This document shows positions 5,501 to 37,360 of a stretch of 64,000 nucleotides of DNA, piece after piece. Source of the DNA: an uncultured Gemmatimonadaceae bacterium. Lineage in GTDB: Bacteria; Gemmatimonadota; Gemmatimonadetes; Gemmatimonadales; Gemmatimonadaceae. The position numbers and the translations under genes are program-made. The notes under the pieces were generated by a model. It saw only the letters and a program-made list of their open reading frames with translations, had not been told where the DNA came from and did not search any database. Every line of letters begins with the position of its first letter. Position 1 is the first letter of the stretch. The DNA lies in the NCBI GenBank assembly GCA_963740355.1, contig CAVUDW010000003.1:1728001-1792000 (forward strand), written 5' to 3'.

Positions 5501-6288
5501 TCGATCTGACCTGTTCGGCGTGGGATGCGACGCTCGAGTCGCGCGCACCCGAGTCGAAGGCGCCGGCGATCCGGCTTGGTGTGCGCAGTGTGCGCGGACT
5601 TGGGGCGGCCGCGCGTGGCAAGCTCGAAGCAGCGCTGACCGAAGGAGCATTCAGCGATGTGGGCGATGTCGTGCGGCGCACGCGCCTCGATCGACGTGCA
5701 CTGCGATTGCTGGCCGAGTCGGGGGCGTTTGATGGGATGTTCGCGAACGAGCCACTGGCCACGCGGCGACGGCGGGCGTTGTGGGAAGTGCTGGCGGCGG
5801 TGCGTGGTGATGCTGGCCCGCTGGCACCGTCGGTGTTGCTGCCCGATGCAGCCTTGCCGCGGATGTCGATGGCCGACCTCACCGAGGCCGATTATCGCGT
5901 GATGGGGGTGTCGCTGAACGGGCATCCGATGCGGCACCTGCGGCCGTTGCTGCAACCGAATGGCATCCGGAGCGCGCGCGACATTCAGGCCAACGGCCGT
6001 GATACCGAGCAGGTCGCGATCGCGGGCCTCGTCATCTGCCGCCAGCGCCCCAGCACGGCGAAGGGATTCGTGTTCCTGTCGCTGGAGGACGAGACCGGCA
6101 TCGTGAACGTCGTCGTCACCCCGCAGCGGTTCGAGCGTGATGCCCTCAAGATCAGCACCTCGCCCCTGCTGCTGGTGCGTGGCACGCTGCAGGTGGAGTC
6201 GAACGTGGTGACGCTGCGCGGCCGGCTCTTCGTGCCGCTCGATGCACAGCTCGGGGCCGAACATGCGCGCAGCCACGATTTCCGGTGA
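2506..6288 (+). CDS. dnaE2: Error-prone DNA polymerase DnaE2 (ImuC) with a ~200-aa internal insertion
   Basis: PHP motif ELHAHSAFSLLDG, GRGSAANS, PPDIDIDF, KIDLLGLG, YGFPESHA, OB fold RQRPSTAKG and C-terminal SHDFR. GGAGG RBS upstream. Confidence 0.95.
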   Translation: MTGDDYVELHAHSAFSLLDGASAPEELIARAVITGQLAIALTDHDELGGAVRFAQAADAAGIAGIIGAELTVSANGALQHLTLLATSRLGYGNLSTLITRARMDVPERGAPSVPFDLLAAHTDGLFALSGCPRGAVPQALAAGNVAEANRIAGTLRDLFEDAFAIEVWDHRLPEEHALVRQLIPIARRIGVPWVVTNNAHYATRQGRPAHDALTALRHGRPLDAMGTRLRPNGEWYLKSTALHYKRWLGHEAGLRATRVIAERCQFRISQLKPSLPRFPLPPGVSEDDYLAQLVETGATERWGHTRTPAQAKQLAHELEVIRRLDMAGYFLIVWDIVRFSRREGILCQGRGSAANSAVCYCLGITAVDPIRMELLFERFLSEDRREPPDIDIDFAHRERERVLQYVYERYGREHAAMVCEQITYRGRSAVRDAARILGFSLEQGDALAAVSDRFSARSTAAALRAGLGTASAEDLRRTAFVEATPRSIGATGPVHRADKPDAELPHIQRDLGKRAFAVDLPEAERTPTIPLTMRRPAIRTASADIDAYDGENTIDKPELRKRYEREERLAAIPSARTRRVTASERSRVDLSTVALVTSQTAGEGEATELTECSTGRSVNTRNERDGVVDVPSPSSPTSPSTDAPSATHSVSSVASAPNAVAVAVPPPRTDILERAGLDPKDPRVRALADIVDGLHQLPRHRSIHVGGFVLTREPLSTVVPIEPASMPGRTVIQWERDDLDAASLVKIDLLGLGILTVLQDCLVYVRQTRGVTIDLALLDTSDQAVYDDLCAADTIGVFQVESRAQMNTLPRLKPRCFYDIVVEVALIRPGPIQGAMVHPYLRRRAGVEEVVYPHPSLEPILKRTLGVPLFQEQGMQVAIACAGFTAGEADTLRRAMGHKRSHEKMEALRQKMLAGMRANGIDGDVANRIFAQINAFADYGFPESHAASFALLVYASAWLRHYYHAEFLAAMLNAQPMGFYAPGTLIEDGRRHGVEVRGVDLTCSAWDATLESRAPESKAPAIRLGVRSVRGLGAAARGKLEAALTEGAFSDVGDVVRRTRLDRRALRLLAESGAFDGMFANEPLATRRRRALWEVLAAVRGDAGPLAPSVLLPDAALPRMSMADLTEADYRVMGVSLNGHPMRHLRPLLQPNGIRSARDIQANGRDTEQVAIAGLVICRQRPSTAKGFVFLSLEDETGIVNVVVTPQRFERDALKISTSPLLLVRGTLQVESNVVTLRGRLFVPLDAQLGAEHARSHDFR
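4317..4497. repeat. Palindromic element embedded in-frame in dnaE2
   Basis: Perfect 25-bp IR GGAGGCCACGGAGCTCACGGAGTGC (4317-4341) / GCACTCCGTGAGCTCCGTGGCCTCC (4446-4470), followed by GCAGTT x3 as in the intergenic repeats. Confidence 0.85.
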
Positions 6289-6376: not shown

Positions 6377-6871
6377 ATGCGCACTCCACTGCTCGTCACG
6401 CTCCTCTGCCTCACGACAGGCCTCACCGCCTGCATGCCGCCCAAGTCGCTGCCCCCAAAGCCGCGGCCAGACGATACCGACCTGCAGGATCAGCTCTTTG
6501 CCGCCGACCGCGCTTTCGCGCGGGCGGTGGCCGACAGTGGCGCACCGGCTTGGAATGCGCGGCTCGCAGACGACATCGCCAAACCCGGGAACGGAGGCCT
6601 CATCCTGCTCCGCGGCATCGTACCCGTGGCCGCCAACGACAAGTCGCTCTTCGCCGACGCCGCCCAGCTGCTCGTCTGGGAGCCAACCGACGCGGTCGCG
6701 TACACCGATCGTGTGACGGGGGTCACGGTAGGGCGGTATGCTATGGTTCGTCGCAGTGTCCGCACCGATACCCTCACCCGCGGCCGCTACCTCACGCTCT
6801 GGCGCAAGCAGTCCGATGGTCGCTGGAAGATCATGCTCGACACCGGCTGGCCCGACACGCCGAACAAGTAG
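6377..6871 (+). CDS. NTF2-like/DUF4440 family lipoprotein
   Basis: Lipobox LTAC. QLFAADRAFARA and GRYLTLWRKQSDGRWKIMLDTG are typical of DUF4440/YybH. Confidence 0.75.
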   Translation: MRTPLLVTLLCLTTGLTACMPPKSLPPKPRPDDTDLQDQLFAADRAFARAVADSGAPAWNARLADDIAKPGNGGLILLRGIVPVAANDKSLFADAAQLLVWEPTDAVAYTDRVTGVTVGRYAMVRRSVRTDTLTRGRYLTLWRKQSDGRWKIMLDTGWPDTPNK

Positions 6872-6903
6872 TCCAGGCAGAAACCGAGACCATCTTTCCG
6901 TCC

Positions 6904-7503
6904 ATGCTGCGCGACCTCCTGCCACCGGCCCTTCGCGATCGGTACGACGCGAATCGCTCCGACAAACGCGACATCGACGGGGTGCAGGCCTGGTTCCTCA
7001 ACGAGCGTGAGGACATCGACAACGCGCACCTGGTCTCGCGCTTCACCGAAGCGCTGACGCTGATCGGCAAGTACATGCCGCGCCACCTGCGCCGCCTGCG
7101 TCAGGACGTGCACTGCATCTGGGTCAAGCGCTGGCCCAACCGCGGGATCTTTTTCCACGACACCCGCATCATGGTGATCGACACCACCTTCGTCGTGAAT
7201 CCGACCTTCACGCTGGCGCAGGTGGCGGCCACGATCCTGCACGAAGGGGTGCATGCGCGCATCACGGCCATGCGAGTCAACCGTCGCTACACCAACATCG
7301 CTGACGAAGAGCGCATGTGTCGCCGTGCCGAGATCGCGTTCGGGCAACTGGCGCCAGGTGGCGCGCCGGTGGTGGCACGCGCGATGGAAATCCTTGGCCT
7401 CACCGACGACGAGGTGGCGCCAGGCATCGACCTCGCCGTGGCGGACGCCAAGCTCCGCGAGCTACGCAAGCGTGAAGGGGGTTCAGGGAGCGGCAACGTC
7501 TAG
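6904..7503 (+). CDS. Hypothetical protein with HEXXH zinc-metallopeptidase-like motif
   Basis: ATILHEGVH followed by a downstream EERMC. Good codon usage. Fills the gap between neighbouring genes. Confidence 0.6.
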   Translation: MLRDLLPPALRDRYDANRSDKRDIDGVQAWFLNEREDIDNAHLVSRFTEALTLIGKYMPRHLRRLRQDVHCIWVKRWPNRGIFFHDTRIMVIDTTFVVNPTFTLAQVAATILHEGVHARITAMRVNRRYTNIADEERMCRRAEIAFGQLAPGGAPVVARAMEILGLTDDEVAPGIDLAVADAKLRELRKREGGSGSGNV

Positions 7504-33021: not shown

Positions 33022-34311
33022 TCAGTCCGCCATCGCCTCGCTGTGCCGCGTCTCCGGCATCACCACGTACACCACCAGCGACATCGCAATCAGGACGGTC
33101 ACGTACCAGTAGAACCAGCTCTCGTGCCCCATGTTCTTGAACCAGAGCGCCAAGTACTCCGCGGTGCCACCAAACACCGAGACCGCGATCGCGTACGGGA
33201 ACGCCACGCCCAGCGCCCGCACATTGGTCGGAAACAGCTCGGCCTTCACCACCGCGTTGATCGCTGTGTAGCCGCTGACCACCAGCAGCGCGAGCGTCAG
33301 CAACGACAGCGCCGCGGCAAAACTGCCGGCGGTCGCCAGGCGCGTCAGCAGCGGCAACGTGCCCAAAGTGCCCACCACACCGAACGCGATCAGCACCGGC
33401 CGACGGCCGATTCGGTCCGAGATGGCGCCCACGATCGGCTGAACACACATGAAGATCGCCAGCGAGGCAGCCGACACGAGCGTCGCGGCGGACTTGCTGA
33501 AGCCCGCTGTGTTGACCAGAAACTTCTGCGCGTAGGTGGTGAAGGTGTAGAACGCCACCGTCCCGCCGGCCGTCAGTCCGATCACAGTCGCAATCGCCCG
33601 CGGATGCGCCAGCAGGCTGGCCAGCGCCGACGCGCGCGTCTCATTCGGTGCCAGCGACCTGGTGAAGGCGCCGGTCTCGGCGATCCCTCGACGCACGGCC
33701 ACCGCCACCAGCGCACAGGCCGCGCCGATCAGGAACGGAATCCGCCAGCCCCACGCCTCCAGCGCCGCGGTGTCGAGAAAGCGCTGCAGCACCAACAACA
33801 CGCCGAGTGCGAGCAGCTGGCCCATGATCAGCGTCACGTACTGGAAGCTCGACCAGAAGCCGCGGTGCTGCTTGCCAGCCATCTCGCTCAGGTAGGTCGC
33901 GCTGGCGCCGTATTCACCACCCACGCTCACGCCCTGCATCATTCGCGCGAACACCAGGATCGCCGGCGCCGCCACGCCAATCGTGGCATACGACGGCGTG
34001 ATCGCGATCAGCAGCGAGCCGGCGCACATCAAGAGCACCGAGAATGTCAGCGCCGCGCGACGCCCGTGCCGGTCGGCGTAACGGCCCATCACCCAGCCAC
34101 CGATCGGGCGCATCAGGAATCCGACCGCGAAGACCGCCGCCGCATTCAGCAGCTGCACCGTCTGATCCGCTGGCGGAAAGAACGCCTTCGAGAAGTAGAG
34201 CGAGAACGCCGAGTAGACGTACCAGTCGTACCACTCGACGAGATTGCCGACGGAGCCGCCAATGATGGAGCGGAGTCGGTGCGAGGCTGTGGGCACAGCG
34301 GAGGATGCCAT
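33022..34311 (-). CDS. kgtP: MFS metabolite:H+ symporter, alpha-ketoglutarate permease-like
   Basis: GNLVEWYDWYVY, GFLMRPIGG, SVGGEYG, SSFQYVT, WGWRIPF, VVKAELFP. Confidence 0.85.
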   Translation of the reverse strand: MASSAVPTASHRLRSIIGGSVGNLVEWYDWYVYSAFSLYFSKAFFPPADQTVQLLNAAAVFAVGFLMRPIGGWVMGRYADRHGRRAALTFSVLLMCAGSLLIAITPSYATIGVAAPAILVFARMMQGVSVGGEYGASATYLSEMAGKQHRGFWSSFQYVTLIMGQLLALGVLLVLQRFLDTAALEAWGWRIPFLIGAACALVAVAVRRGIAETGAFTRSLAPNETRASALASLLAHPRAIATVIGLTAGGTVAFYTFTTYAQKFLVNTAGFSKSAATLVSAASLAIFMCVQPIVGAISDRIGRRPVLIAFGVVGTLGTLPLLTRLATAGSFAAALSLLTLALLVVSGYTAINAVVKAELFPTNVRALGVAFPYAIAVSVFGGTAEYLALWFKNMGHESWFYWYVTVLIAMSLVVYVVMPETRHSEAMAD

Positions 34312-34334
34312 GCCCCCAACCTATCAGCCGTGCA

Positions 34335-35408
34335 TCAGGCCGCCGAGGCAGTCGTCAGCAAGGGTGCCGATGTATGTCCAACCAGCGGCATCACCTGCTC
34401 GGCAAACCGCTCCATCTCCTCCAGCTGCGGGCTGCACTGCAGCAGCAGCAAGCCGACGCCGGCGGCTTCCAGCTCGCGAATCCGATCCGCGACCTGCTCC
34501 GGTGTGCCCACCAGACCCGCCCGCAGCCCGCGATTCGACACCGAGTAGTCGTGCAGTGACACCTGCTGCTCGAGCTGCGTGTTACCGATCCAGTCCTGAT
34601 AGTTGTGGTAGCCCGGTGACCCAGGCTGCACGTTCGTGATCCGCTCCAGCTCGCGCTGCGCCTCGGCCTCCGTGTTGCGCACGATCACATAGGCAGCCAT
34701 GCCGAACTGCATCGCACGACCGTCCACCTGCTCGCGACGTGCACGCATGTCCGCGATCTTCGGCGCCACGCGCGACGCGGGATCACCGTGCATCACGTAC
34801 GCATCACACTGCGATGCGATCAGCGACTTGCCGGCTTCCGATTCGCCGCCGGCGTACAACACCGGATGCGGTCGTGACCAGCTGGAGACGGGCTTCGGCT
34901 GCACGATCAGTTCATCCACCGAGTAGAACCTGCCCTTGTACGTCAATGACGGCTCCGTCCACGCGCCCTTCAGCACATCCAGCCACTCCGCCGTGCGTGC
35001 ATACCGATCGTCATGTTCATCGAAGGTGCTGCCATAGCGACGCGCCTCATCCTTCCACCAGCTCGAGACCACGTTCAACGACAAGCGACCATTGCTGATG
35101 TGATCGATGTTGGCGGCCTGCTTCGCCAGCGTGGCCGGATGATGGAACGTCGGCCGCACCGCCACCATCAGCTCGAGCCGCGTCGTCACGGCTGCCAGCG
35201 CCGCGGCAGTCGACCAGGCATCCAGCGCCGGCGCCTCGACCCCCTTGATGTCATTCAAGAACAACTCAGCGATCAGCGTGAGGTCGAATCCGATCTCCTC
35301 GCTGCGACGCGCCAGTCGCTGCACGTACGGCCAGGTCGCCGTCATCCCTTCGTCGGGCACGTTGCGCAGCCACCCGCCAAAGACAGGCAACCAATATCCG
35401 AATCGCAT
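34335..35408 (-). CDS. Luciferase-like (LLM) flavin-dependent monooxygenase, SfnG/SsuD-related
   Basis: FGYWLPVFGG, GFDLTLIAE, LMVAVRP, SNGRLSLNVVS, YAGGES, LVGTPEQVA. Confidence 0.88.
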   Translation of the reverse strand: MRFGYWLPVFGGWLRNVPDEGMTATWPYVQRLARRSEEIGFDLTLIAELFLNDIKGVEAPALDAWSTAAALAAVTTRLELMVAVRPTFHHPATLAKQAANIDHISNGRLSLNVVSSWWKDEARRYGSTFDEHDDRYARTAEWLDVLKGAWTEPSLTYKGRFYSVDELIVQPKPVSSWSRPHPVLYAGGESEAGKSLIASQCDAYVMHGDPASRVAPKIADMRARREQVDGRAMQFGMAAYVIVRNTEAEAQRELERITNVQPGSPGYHNYQDWIGNTQLEQQVSLHDYSVSNRGLRAGLVGTPEQVADRIRELEAAGVGLLLLQCSPQLEEMERFAEQVMPLVGHTSAPLLTTASAA

Positions 35409-36382
35409 CAGCCCACCAACGCCGGCGCGCCGGCGATTCGTGCCTCGAGGTAATCCACCAGGCGCACGAAGGGATCGAAGCCGATCACGTTCGGGGCGTC
35501 GGCCACGAAGTTCGACAATGCATTGATGTCGTAGAAATAGTGCTGCCCATCACGATCGTCGACGAGATATTCGATGCCACCGACATCGATGTTCGCTGCC
35601 CGTGAAATCCGCTCCACCTGGGCAATGATCTCAGCCGGTGGATGCGCAACTTCGACTCGCATACCCGTCTTCGGCGCATCCACTGCGCAGGCACCACGCA
35701 CCAACTCCACACCGTTGGTGGTCTGGCAGGCATCGGCCGGGCAGAGGTCGAAGGAATTCTGCGGCGGATAGACATTGATGGCGTACAGATAGTGCCCGCC
35801 CAGCGTCTCCACGCGCGTGATGCGGCCATCGCGCAGTGGTGCCGACTCCTGCACCAGCGCCGTGCTGTCCACGCCCAGGTCGACCGTGCCAGCGGCCACG
35901 GCCTCGGCGAGCGCGTCGGCTGTCTCGTAGCGGACGATCCCGGCCCCGCTGCCGCCGATGTTCGCCTTCACCAGCACTGGGAAACGGAACCCCTTCGCGG
36001 CATCGAGCGCTCGCGACGGATGATTGATCACACGCGCCTTCGGATACGGCAGGCCCAGTTCGCGAAGCAGGTCGAGCTGCGTGGCCTTCGACAATTCGTA
36101 GGCATACGCACCAGCGCCGTTCACGACCGGGACGCCGATGCTCTCGAGATGGCGCAGCCAGTGCAACGTGTGGAACGTGGCCTGAGCGTGCCCGCGCAAA
36201 TACGCCGACGGGCTGGCCCGATTGAACACCAGCGAATACGGCGATTCGCTTTCGGACGGATCGAAGACATGTGCGGCGGCGTCGAGACGTTCATACGCGA
36301 TGCCGCGACGCTCGAGCTCAGCAAACAGCGGGCGAAACCAGTCGGGATGTTCGTGGTAGATCGCAATCGGCAGGCGGGACAT
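35408..36382 (-). CDS. ATP-grasp (RimK-like) ligase
   Basis: VFNRASPSAYLRG, PVLVKANIGGSGAGI, VGGIEY, YDINALSNF. Stop codon overlaps the LLM start. Confidence 0.85.
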   Translation of the reverse strand: MSRLPIAIYHEHPDWFRPLFAELERRGIAYERLDAAAHVFDPSESESPYSLVFNRASPSAYLRGHAQATFHTLHWLRHLESIGVPVVNGAGAYAYELSKATQLDLLRELGLPYPKARVINHPSRALDAAKGFRFPVLVKANIGGSGAGIVRYETADALAEAVAAGTVDLGVDSTALVQESAPLRDGRITRVETLGGHYLYAINVYPPQNSFDLCPADACQTTNGVELVRGACAVDAPKTGMRVEVAHPPAEIIAQVERISRAANIDVGGIEYLVDDRDGQHYFYDINALSNFVADAPNVIGFDPFVRLVDYLEARIAGAPALVG

Positions 36383-36417
36383 GACGCAACCTCGGAAACG
36401 GTGGTGCCCCCACATAC

Positions 36418-36448
36418 GACAAAGCCCGGCGCAATGAAGCCGCCGGGC
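36418..36448 (-). terminator. Terminator-like hairpin in the riboswitch expression platform
   Basis: Minus strand GCCCGGCG-GCTTCATTG-CGCCGGGC followed by TTTGTCGT. Confidence 0.55.
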
Positions 36449-36454
36449 GTTCGC

Positions 36455-36504
36455 GTTTTAGCTCATTGTTTTGCGTGGCGGCAAGAGGCGGCAAATGACC
36501 ACGG
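36455..36504 (-). ncRNA. SAM-II (SAM_alpha-like) riboswitch
   Basis: Minus strand CCGUGGUCAUUUGCCGCCUCUUGCCGCCACGCAAAACAAUGAGCUAAAAC has P1 CGUGGU/GCCACG, AUUUG and UUGC in the loop and 3' GCUAAA, as in SAM-II aptamers. It lies upstream of sulfur-related genes. Confidence 0.75.
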
Positions 36505-36572
36505 CGAACGATTGTGATTGATACTTAGCGCAACTCGCGAGTCGCTGTCAATCCTTCAGCAGATCAGTATTT

Positions 36573-37232
36573 CTACTGACCGACCACGCGAATACGCGCA
36601 CCGTCACGGTTGAAGATCTCGATCCGATCGGCACGCGCGTCACCGTTGCGGTCGGTCCAGATCTGCACCAGGCGACCATCGATGTCGAACCACTGCACGC
36701 GGTCCGGCGCACCACCGCGCGGCGGCATCACGAAACGCGCCGCGACATTCTGGCCACCAAACCATCGCTGCAGTTCGGGGGAACGCTGACCTTCCGTCCA
36801 CAGCACCGCAGCTCGCATCGACGGCAGCGCCAGTGCCGTATCATCGCACCGCGAATCACGCCCACCGTCACTGCACGCCTCGTTGCCTGACGCGTCGTCC
36901 CCGCCGCTGCGGAAGGGCGTGCGGGAGCGGTCGTCATCGCGCATCGGACGCACCAAGGGGCGCGTCCAATCGTTCGGGCTGAAGCTGCTCCGCTTCGATT
37001 CCGCACCGTAGATGACCGTCGCGCCAAATGGCTTCGCCCGCAGCGCCGTCCGACAATCGGTTGGAGCCGGCTGCTGCATCGGCGGTACGTCGCGCAGCCA
37101 CACACGGCACATGCCAGCTGGCGGGATGTACGCGGCGGGAACCTCCGGCTGCGCCGAGGGCGACTGCGCCGCAGTGACTGCGGCACTGCCGACCACACAC
37201 GCCAGGAGGATCCCCGTACGCCACGCACCCAT
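36573..37232 (-). CDS. Secreted hypothetical protein (PPAGMCRVW motif)
   Basis: Signal peptide, YIPPAGMCRVWLRDVPPMQQPAPTDC and C-terminal WTDRNGDARAD. Confidence 0.65.
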   Translation of the reverse strand: MGAWRTGILLACVVGSAAVTAAQSPSAQPEVPAAYIPPAGMCRVWLRDVPPMQQPAPTDCRTALRAKPFGATVIYGAESKRSSFSPNDWTRPLVRPMRDDDRSRTPFRSGGDDASGNEACSDGGRDSRCDDTALALPSMRAAVLWTEGQRSPELQRWFGGQNVAARFVMPPRGGAPDRVQWFDIDGRLVQIWTDRNGDARADRIEIFNRDGARIRVVGQ

Positions 37233-37297
37233 CACCACACACGCTCCTTCTGTCGGTTCACGCCTCGCTCCCACAAGCGACGCTCATACCCCGATAG

Positions 37298-37360
37298 AGC
37301 AGGGCCGGTGCCACAGGCCTGAAAAACGGTAAGTGCCTGATTTACAGACACTTACCGTTT
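37298..37360 (-). promoter_or_regulatory. Putative sigma-54 promoter with adjacent palindrome / IHF-like site
   Basis: Minus strand TGGCACCGGCCCTGCT (GG-N10-GC) at 37298-37313. 12-bp IR AAACGGTAAGTG / CACTTACCGTTT at 37324-37360 contains AATCAGGCACTTA (WATCARN4TTR). Confidence 0.55.

Follow-up and report, generated by a model that had tools for sequence, protein, structure and literature searches.

The locus and its features

In the 64,000-nucleotide stretch of DNA analysed here (the window), taken from an uncultured Gemmatimonadaceae bacterium (assembly GCA_963740355.1, contig CAVUDW010000003.1), a SAM-II-type riboswitch (SAM, S-adenosylmethionine) precedes two genes on the minus strand. The first encodes an ATP-grasp protein and the second a luciferase-like flavin monooxygenase (LLM). 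The genes overlap in TGATG (35410-35406) and are thus coupled; the coupling was already seen in an earlier note made from the sequence of this DNA alone. The features are, in order of transcription:

36521..36551, minus strand: promoter-like TTGACA (36551-36546) and TAAGTAT (36527-36521), 18 nt apart, kept in same-genus relatives
36452..36503, minus strand: SAM-II-type aptamer (Rfam SAM_alpha, 33.0 bits; alignment of 34 copies)
36503-36498 with 36479-36474, minus strand: aptamer stem P1, 100% paired in the alignment
36495-36493, minus strand: aptamer L1 UUU, SAM-contact bases
36484-36481, minus strand: aptamer UUGC, SAM-contact region
36462-36460, minus strand: aptamer GCU, with the equivalent of U44 at 36460
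CGC 36490-36488 with GCG 36454-36452, minus strand: aptamer P2a, a pseudoknot pairing
36448-36441 with 36431-36424, minus strand: terminator-like hairpin, U-rich tail at 36423-36416 (fold z -3.3; 34-copy alignment)
36439..36444, minus strand: candidate antiterminator strand GGCGGC in the 5' arm of the hairpin, by complementarity to the aptamer
36390..36393, minus strand: Shine-Dalgarno-like GAGG beyond the aptamer, 7 nt upstream of the ATG at 36382
35408..36382, minus strand: ATP-grasp protein, 324 aa, ArgX/LysX/RimK fold (closest to ArgX, 3vpb) with a cysteine loop
34335..35408, minus strand: LLM, 357 aa, of the uncharacterised 3RAO/8VW6 subfamily (PF00296, 216.6 bits)

A SAM-II-type aptamer with two paralogues

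The earlier note had recognised a SAM-II-type aptamer, and a search with Rfam covariance models bears out the likeness but stops short of formal membership. No model is matched at its gathering threshold anywhere in the 64-kb window; in E-value mode, SAM_alpha (RF00521) matches over its full length at 36441-36512 on the minus strand with 33.0 bits (E 7.8e-6), under the gathering cut-off of 36 bits. The core spans 36503-36452, its 3' end reaching three bases beyond that given in the note and taking in the P2a strand GCG. Among 34 distinct SAM-II-type copies (related sequences, so that shuffle statistics overstate), P1 is paired in every copy with two compensatory pairs changed on both sides, and the P2 pseudoknot is paired in 98.9% with an invariant sequence. 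The SAM-contacting bases known from the crystal form (U10, U11, U12, U20, U21, G22, U44, A45 and A46, according to an excerpt of PMC3303485) are all present in the window aptamer and invariant across the copies, except U44 (33/34).

A strict SAM-II pattern occurs at three sites in the 5.4-Mb host genome (94.5% complete), and these are the same three that the covariance model finds, so the aptamer is more than a chance resemblance. The other two copies score 62.1 bits, before a metX-like frame (TIGR01392, 138 bits, under the cut-off in a partial frame), and 32.4 bits, before metY (TIGR01326, 643 bits against a cut-off of 495); the metY copy is nearly identical to the window copy, hairpin included. 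The paralogues thus stand where SAM-II elements are expected, before methionine and SAM genes. In one locus (L031:1620-2605), the metX-like gene behind the strongest SAM-II element seems to be split across two frames, and its start comes right after a hairpin with nearly no U tail.

Judged by alignment and covariance model, the riboswitch is real and is a SAM-II-type variant, which by its score under that of the curators is no formal member of the Rfam family. Like SAM-II elements of RF00521 (for example, that of S. meliloti metZ with its predicted terminator), it has P1, the pseudoknot and all contact bases, a promoter just upstream, a terminator downstream and met genes in its regulon. It differs from them in its score, its short GCCGCC loop, its Gemmatimonadota host and its control of an uncharacterised enzyme pair. 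The RNA is therefore a known class in a new phylum; a search for papers joining SAM-II, riboswitch and Gemmatimonad found none, although subscription journals lay mostly outside it and novelty is thus unproven.

Probable control by transcription termination

The TTGACA/TAAGTAT pair is conserved in same-genus relatives with a spacer of 16 or 18 nt and probably starts transcription near 36514. In SAM-II elements, P1 begins shortly after the promoter (PMC1273637, in excerpt), as it does in the window. Further downstream, the segment 36410-36460 folds at -24.4 kcal/mol (z -3.3), a value reached by 1 of 200 shuffles. The hairpin within it, which the earlier note had described as a GC hairpin with a short U-tract, is 86.4% paired across the 34 copies, with three pairs changed on both sides. 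Five of the 8 bases in its tail, UUUGUCGU, are U, and a scan for consensus promoters and terminators listed neither the promoter nor the hairpin (0 terminators found); the hairpin is for these reasons regarded as a weak-tailed terminator.

The strand GGCGGC in the 5' arm of this hairpin complements GCCGCC in aptamer loop L1 (36492-36487, the loop that forms P2a) and a second GCCGCC (36482-36477). The antiterminator pairing is present in 91.2% of the copies, and in 25 of the 34 related sequences the best duplex is stronger than those formed with shuffled downstream sequence (p<0.05). In nascent RNA, the antiterminator comes within 0.7-1.4 kcal/mol of the minimum. Two points tell against it: the pairing lacks covariation in the alignment, and in the full-length RNA it is 11-13 kcal/mol worse than the terminator and loses at equilibrium. 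A switch, if real, would be kinetic, because the terminator wins at full length and the antiterminator is near the minimum only in nascent RNA. At high SAM, the aptamer pseudoknot would fold and lock the GCCGCC strand, the hairpin would form and transcription would stop. Conversely, at low SAM, GCCGCC would capture the emerging 5' arm of the hairpin and the two genes would be transcribed. Control of translation by occlusion of the Shine-Dalgarno sequence is unlikely, since it lies about 60 nt beyond the aptamer.

A SAM off-switch, probably acting through transcription termination, as the earlier note had suspected, is thus well supported. The note had described SAM-II as often acting on translation; termination control is nevertheless ordinary for the class, as terminators after SAM-II are common or even the commonest platform in the literature (PMC1273637, PMC2258182, both in excerpt). 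In S. meliloti, however, the terminator after the metA SAM-II element is not switched by SAM (PMC9373788, in excerpt). By this precedent, the hairpin in the window could be a constitutive attenuator, with the aptamer acting on RNA stability or on distant translation, and the advantage of the terminator at equilibrium would suit such an arrangement. We consider it unlikely: the aptamer contains no Shine-Dalgarno sequence, GGCGGC is kept while the 3' arm of the hairpin, and the stem in the metX copy, change, and the second element of locus L066 alters GCCGCG and CGCGGU together (seen by eye and, with an alignment shift, outside the pairing count). A constitutive attenuator would concern regulation only and is compatible with any of the chemistries discussed below. 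The riboswitch provides a short, explicit terminator/antiterminator model for SAM-II.

Locus L066 carries two divergent SAM-II elements back to back (6056-6167, minus strand, and 6812-6922, plus strand), the minus-strand element with matched changes in its loop and hairpin arm.

The flavin monooxygenase

The LLM matches PF00296 with 216.6 bits against a cut-off of 27.9 and has a TIM-barrel fold (TM 0.83-0.88 to the top matches in structure comparison). In its motif for the phosphate of flavin mononucleotide (FMN), H132, Y136 and S190 are invariant and E189 stands at the S188 position. Its closest relatives are 3RAO, an LLM of Bacillus cereus (441 bits; 57-58% identity in fold comparison), and 8VW6 (394 bits; 51%), which fall in the same subfamily, compared with 172 bits and 29-31% for SfnG. 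The literature searched gave no function for 3RAO, which appears there as a search model and structural neighbour, and no paper on 8VW6.

Among characterised families, SfnG (TIGR04021) scores best, at 260.4 bits against a cut-off of 382.95; SsuD (TIGR03565) scores 183.5 against 518.2. Residues were mapped by sequence alignment onto those given in excerpts of PMC11588060 (SfnG) and PMC8234197 (MsuD). SfnG contacts dimethylsulfone (DMSO2) through W11, Q53, R55, Y60, W121, F267, W285, Y296 and N297 (PMC11588060). Three of these are identical in the LLM (W11, W121 and N297), one is similar (F267, here Y267) and five are lost (Q53, R55, Y60, W285 and Y296 becoming A47, L49, K55, a gap and S291). 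The sulfone-oxygen ligands W121 and N297 are thus kept, as W117 and N292, while the methyl cage is opened. The LLM adds invariant R15, D53, K55 and R293, which suggests a charged substrate. W195 and R225 of MsuD, each of them essential (PMC8234197), are replaced by H207 and A238 in 55 of 55 sequences, and the RGGA motif is missing.

Assignment to SfnG or SsuD was rejected, as both cut-offs are missed and 5 of the 9 DMSO2 contacts and 2 of the 3 MsuD sulfonate residues are gone. The LLM shares with SfnG (8T0U/8T0W) the class C flavin monooxygenase fold and SfnG residues W11, W121, N297, H136, Y140 and S189; unlike SfnG, it occurs in loci without the downstream MsuC/MsuD route.

The ATP-grasp protein and its cysteine loop

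The predicted fold of the ATP-grasp protein is closest to ArgX (3vpb, Z 27.7), with the ATP-grasp extending over residues 1-322. The ArgX/LysX/RimK ligases share with it the fold (Z 25-28) and the ATP/Mg residues (K99, K139, E179, R190, E271, D285 and N287). They are otherwise distant, with 16-20% identity and scores far under the cut-offs (RimK family profile, 50.7 bits against 143.4). In RimK and LysX, an FRSN or R-x-N loop holds the incoming amino acid. Here, the R-x-N is replaced by a cysteine loop, F-[ND]-L-C214-P-A-D-x-C219 (CxxxxC), often followed by a third cysteine, C232; aligned with FRSNLH of RimK, it lacks RS and has C for H. In an alignment of 327 sequences, many of them fragments and kin, C214 is present in 273 and C219 in 269 of the 285 homologues with a residue at the position, compared with 1.2% cysteine overall. 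Matches in the ESM Atlas are unnamed RimK-like clusters only, and no relative was found in viral contigs. This motif, which the earlier note had missed, carries the most interesting inference of the analysis.

Linkage of the pair and its regulators elsewhere

A survey of 151 Gemmatimonadota genomes found the LLM in 31 and the ATP-grasp protein in 33, the two genes being adjacent in all 31 LLM genomes. Among the best 80 of more than 594 genome matches, 73 loci have the LLM within 4.5 kb. Among 80 metagenome loci retrieved with an LLM from Deinococcus as query, 69 carry this ATP-grasp family, and most of the others end close to the LLM. Two Deinococcus carry a different ATP-grasp protein of 426 aa beside the LLM, ending in C-A-C. 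The module occurs in Gemmatimonadota, Bacteroidota, Acidobacteriota, Planctomycetota, Bacillota and others, and neighbour clustering over 84 and 80 loci yielded no third conserved gene. By title, the literature searched contained nothing on this enzyme pair, nor anything on methionine sulfone or sulfoxide terms; the pair is uncharacterised there.

The linkage is asymmetric. In 9 of 10 genomes chosen for lacking the LLM at the locus (their completeness is not shown), the ATP-grasp protein occurs without the LLM. In one such case (L262), it still lies behind a leader rich in methionine and cysteine, and on Pediococcus plasmids it stands beside a dicarboxylate/amino-acid symporter and a thioredoxin-fold protein. 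Because the ATP-grasp protein occurs without the LLM and not, as a rule, vice versa, it fits a finishing step. Within the genus of the host, one locus (L011) keeps the switch, the ATP-grasp gene and the transporter gene described at the end and has lost the LLM there; another (L013) is missing the switch, the LLM and the beginning of the ATP-grasp gene.

The regulators before the pair are of the sulfur type. A SAM-II pattern occurs in 18 of the 80 genome loci. SAM-I scores over its cut-off before the pair in 3 of 8 loci scanned (Bacillus, Pontibacter and Deinococcus; none in the other 5) and is found in 5 of 9 Cytophagales regions (none in the other 4). In the Bacillus record, SAM-I is followed by the 3RAO orthologue and then the same ATP-grasp family. 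Leader open reading frames (ORFs) rich in methionine and cysteine turn up in 16 of the 80 genome loci, in 11 of the 69 metagenome loci and, as a control, in 5 of 600 windows drawn at random. Rfam gave no riboswitch in 15 metagenome loci and none in 12 Acidobacteriota/Bacteroidota regions (2 tRNAs only). Since the leaders are rich in both amino acids, the product would relieve a shortage of either. The operon illustrates cleanly how a single unit can exchange SAM-I, SAM-II and leader-peptide control for one another.

Several of these arrangements are compound. In L014:1144-1500 and L100:6660-6900, SAM-II and a methionine- and cysteine-rich leader ORF stand in tandem before the same operon, each with its own hairpin (the L014 leader passes the threshold; that of L100, VCMC, was seen by eye only). 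In three Cytophagales loci (L222, L225 and L226), SAM-I is followed in tandem by a poly-cysteine leader ORF, and the leaders of two Pontibacter loci (L095 and L110) end in 6-7 cysteines. Upstream of the ATP-grasp gene, at distances of about 100 and 50 nt, two Chitinophagaceae loci (L108 and L115) carry two copies of the inverted repeat AGTCTACTA-N-TTAGTAGA, which resembles a site of the Rrf2/CymR type.

The earlier note had proposed looking for met genes beside the pair elsewhere. Neighbours of sulfur-amino-acid metabolism do occur, but sporadically and without a conserved third gene: a MetQ/N/I-like transporter, a methionine aminotransferase, cysteine synthases, amino-acid permeases, a cysteate racemase and a sulfo-lyase. 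An SsuE-like reductase lies upstream in five loci (L018, L019, L021, L112 and L113). Linkage and regulators together support the two-enzyme sulfur-scavenging unit of the note, and the pair probably recovers reduced sulfur for methionine and cysteine during sulfur-amino-acid shortage.

The fate of the sulfur

The note had also likened the LLM to SfnG and SsuD, releasing inorganic sulfur. This part is not supported, given the missed cut-offs, the lost residues and the scarcity of sulfite reductase. No sulfite-reductase or phosphoadenosine phosphosulfate (PAPS) reductase domain was found in the 94.5% complete host genome, and 27 of the 31 genomes with the module, including two that each consist of a single contig, lack the sulfite-reductase domain PF01077. 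Release of sulfite would thus be a dead end. PF01077 is present in 4 of 5 genomes with the ATP-grasp protein only.

To our knowledge, the usual view is that sulfinates and sulfones can be recovered only by way of oxidation to sulfite followed by costly re-reduction. We propose instead that the LLM cuts a sulfone to a sulfinate and that the ATP-grasp protein reduces the sulfinate to a thiol in the manner of sulfiredoxin, a reading by analogy to which we give a probability of roughly 0.4. The monooxygenase, using FMNH2 and O2, would cleave the C-S bond of a sulfone in SfnG fashion. The substrate of first choice would be a charged amino-acid sulfone, methionine sulfone, giving homocysteine sulfinate and formaldehyde, or methanesulfinate and aspartate semialdehyde. 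That of second choice would be DMSO2; most loci have no transporter. The ATP-grasp protein would then phosphorylate the sulfinate, a group similar to a carboxylate, as its relatives phosphorylate a carboxylate, C214 would attack to form a thiosulfinate, and C219 and cell thiols would release the sulfenate or thiol (homocysteine, cysteine or methanethiol). The co-regulated MetX and MetY would turn the released thiol into methionine; MetY can use methanethiol.

Sulfiredoxin reduces protein sulfinates by ATP-dependent phosphorylation, attack by a cysteine and resolution by thiols (PMC12093155, in excerpt). The likeness is confined to this proposed chemistry, as sulfiredoxin has an unrelated fold and acts on protein cysteine sulfinates.

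The near-invariant C214 and C219 are, as conserved residues, compatible with sulfinate reduction by a catalytic cysteine. An ATP-grasp protein with its own cysteine nucleophile would also explain the LLM's need for this partner, the value of the partner on its own and the dispensability of sulfite reductase. We know of ATP-driven sulfinate repair only for proteins, and in the literature searched (subscription journals mostly outside it) no bacterial small-molecule sulfinate reductase appeared by title or abstract start. A wider and more tentative proposal is that the whole widespread ATP-grasp family consists of small-molecule sulfinate reductases that, with the LLM, lead from sulfone to thiol without sulfite, the CxC family of Deinococcus having converged on this independently. 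If true, this would be another route from oxidised organic sulfur to methionine and cysteine, often without sulfite reductase; it would assign a role to 3RAO and 8VW6, so far orphan structures, and extend the ATP-grasp fold to a new reaction.

A number of findings weigh against the sulfinate route. The cysteine loop is poorly modelled, with a predicted local distance difference test score (pLDDT) of 41-58 over residues 211-240, and three or more cysteines are present in 200 of 270 homologues, so that they could bind a metal. R55 of SfnG, likewise a sulfone-oxygen ligand, is a leucine in the LLM, which leaves even the sulfone unproven. R293 is one column off the sulfonate-binding R296 of MsuD, and 8VW6 was deposited under the title 'SsuD'. 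Most loci have no FMN reductase, and in one metagenome locus (L159) no ATP-grasp match accompanies the LLM despite 2.6 kb of upstream sequence. Genomes without the module seldom have PF01077 either (27 of 120, compared with 4 of 31 carriers), so that the module and sulfite reductase do not exclude each other. The argument from a dead end is further weakened by the host genome itself, which has an SsuD-like LLM (312 bits against 518, in a partial frame) yet no sulfite reductase. In locus L124 (G000:C2:2041398-2045303), an SsuD-like LLM is followed by an amino-acid-permease-like ORF, and no sulfite reductase domain was found in that genome.

Alternative chemistries

The main rival to the sulfinate route is one of acylation, oxidation and deacylation. 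The ATP-grasp protein would N-acylate (for example, glutamylate) an S-alkyl or S-oxidised amino acid, cleavage of the C-S bond by the LLM would give a sulfenate, which cell thiols or CxxxxC would reduce, and a peptidase would free cysteine or homocysteine. The snaA-cmoO-cmoI-cmoJ-sndA genes of B. subtilis serve an S-alkylcysteine salvage of this type, in which reduced sulfur is likewise recovered with the help of LLMs; unlike the module, it takes more than two genes, with GNAT acetylation, two LLMs, a reductase and a deacetylase. Such a route would suit the closeness of the fold to the amino-protecting ligases ArgX and LysX and, as it also yields reduced sulfur, would fit the scarcity of sulfite reductase. 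A few loci do have hydrolases next to the pair (creatininase-like in L162, L166 and L195; an M14 peptidase in L221), which counts for it and against the sulfinate route, as do occasional amidohydrolase or GNAT neighbours. Most loci, however, have no hydrolase, an ATP-grasp protein alone under a methionine and cysteine leader would yield a dead-end amide, and the R-x-N loop of RimK type is replaced by cysteine. We thus hold this route to be rather unlikely, though closest to the sulfinate route in standing.

It is improbable that the cysteine loop serves as a redox switch or as a ligand for zinc or an Fe-S cluster, and that the ATP-grasp protein is a RimK-like glutamylase of peptides or proteins with a regulatory part during sulfur starvation, the LLM acting independently of it. 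The RimK-like fold and the frequent third cysteine would agree with this, but the third cysteine is dispensable, and the LLM almost never occurs apart from an ATP-grasp protein, even if this is of another family, which suggests linked chemistry. Least probable is an SsuD-like desulfonation, in which the LLM would act on cysteate or a different sulfonate to liberate sulfite, with the ATP-grasp protein shielding the amino-aldehyde product: cuyA and cuyB score over their cut-offs in the D. deserti operon, and the title of 8VW6 and the position of R293 speak for it, but the essential MsuD residues are replaced, sulfite reductase is mostly missing among carriers, and cuyA was not found in the host genome, nor over its cut-off in 5 other carriers.

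Neighbouring features

Downstream of the pair lies one further gene, which the earlier note had thought might be separate:

33022..34327, minus strand: kgtP-like major facilitator superfamily (MFS) gene (33022-34311) with its own -10-like TGATAGGTT (34327-34319), probably outside the module

A TAGNNT hexamer stands a few bases before the MFS start in the window and in 11 other same-genus loci (L037 repeats L007), and among the 80 loci L037-L116 the gene is present in only 1, being confined to the genus. By its own hexamer and this distribution, the MFS gene is probably a separate, leaderless unit. On the other side, at 36573-37232 on the minus strand, lies a frame for a 219-aa protein with a signal-peptide-like start, without a Pfam or NCBIfam match and conserved upstream in the genus only. 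Beyond it, at 37290-37360, the pfk gene is followed by a strong inverted repeat (GAAACGGTAAGTG...CACTTACCGTTTTTC) that is probably a bidirectional terminator.

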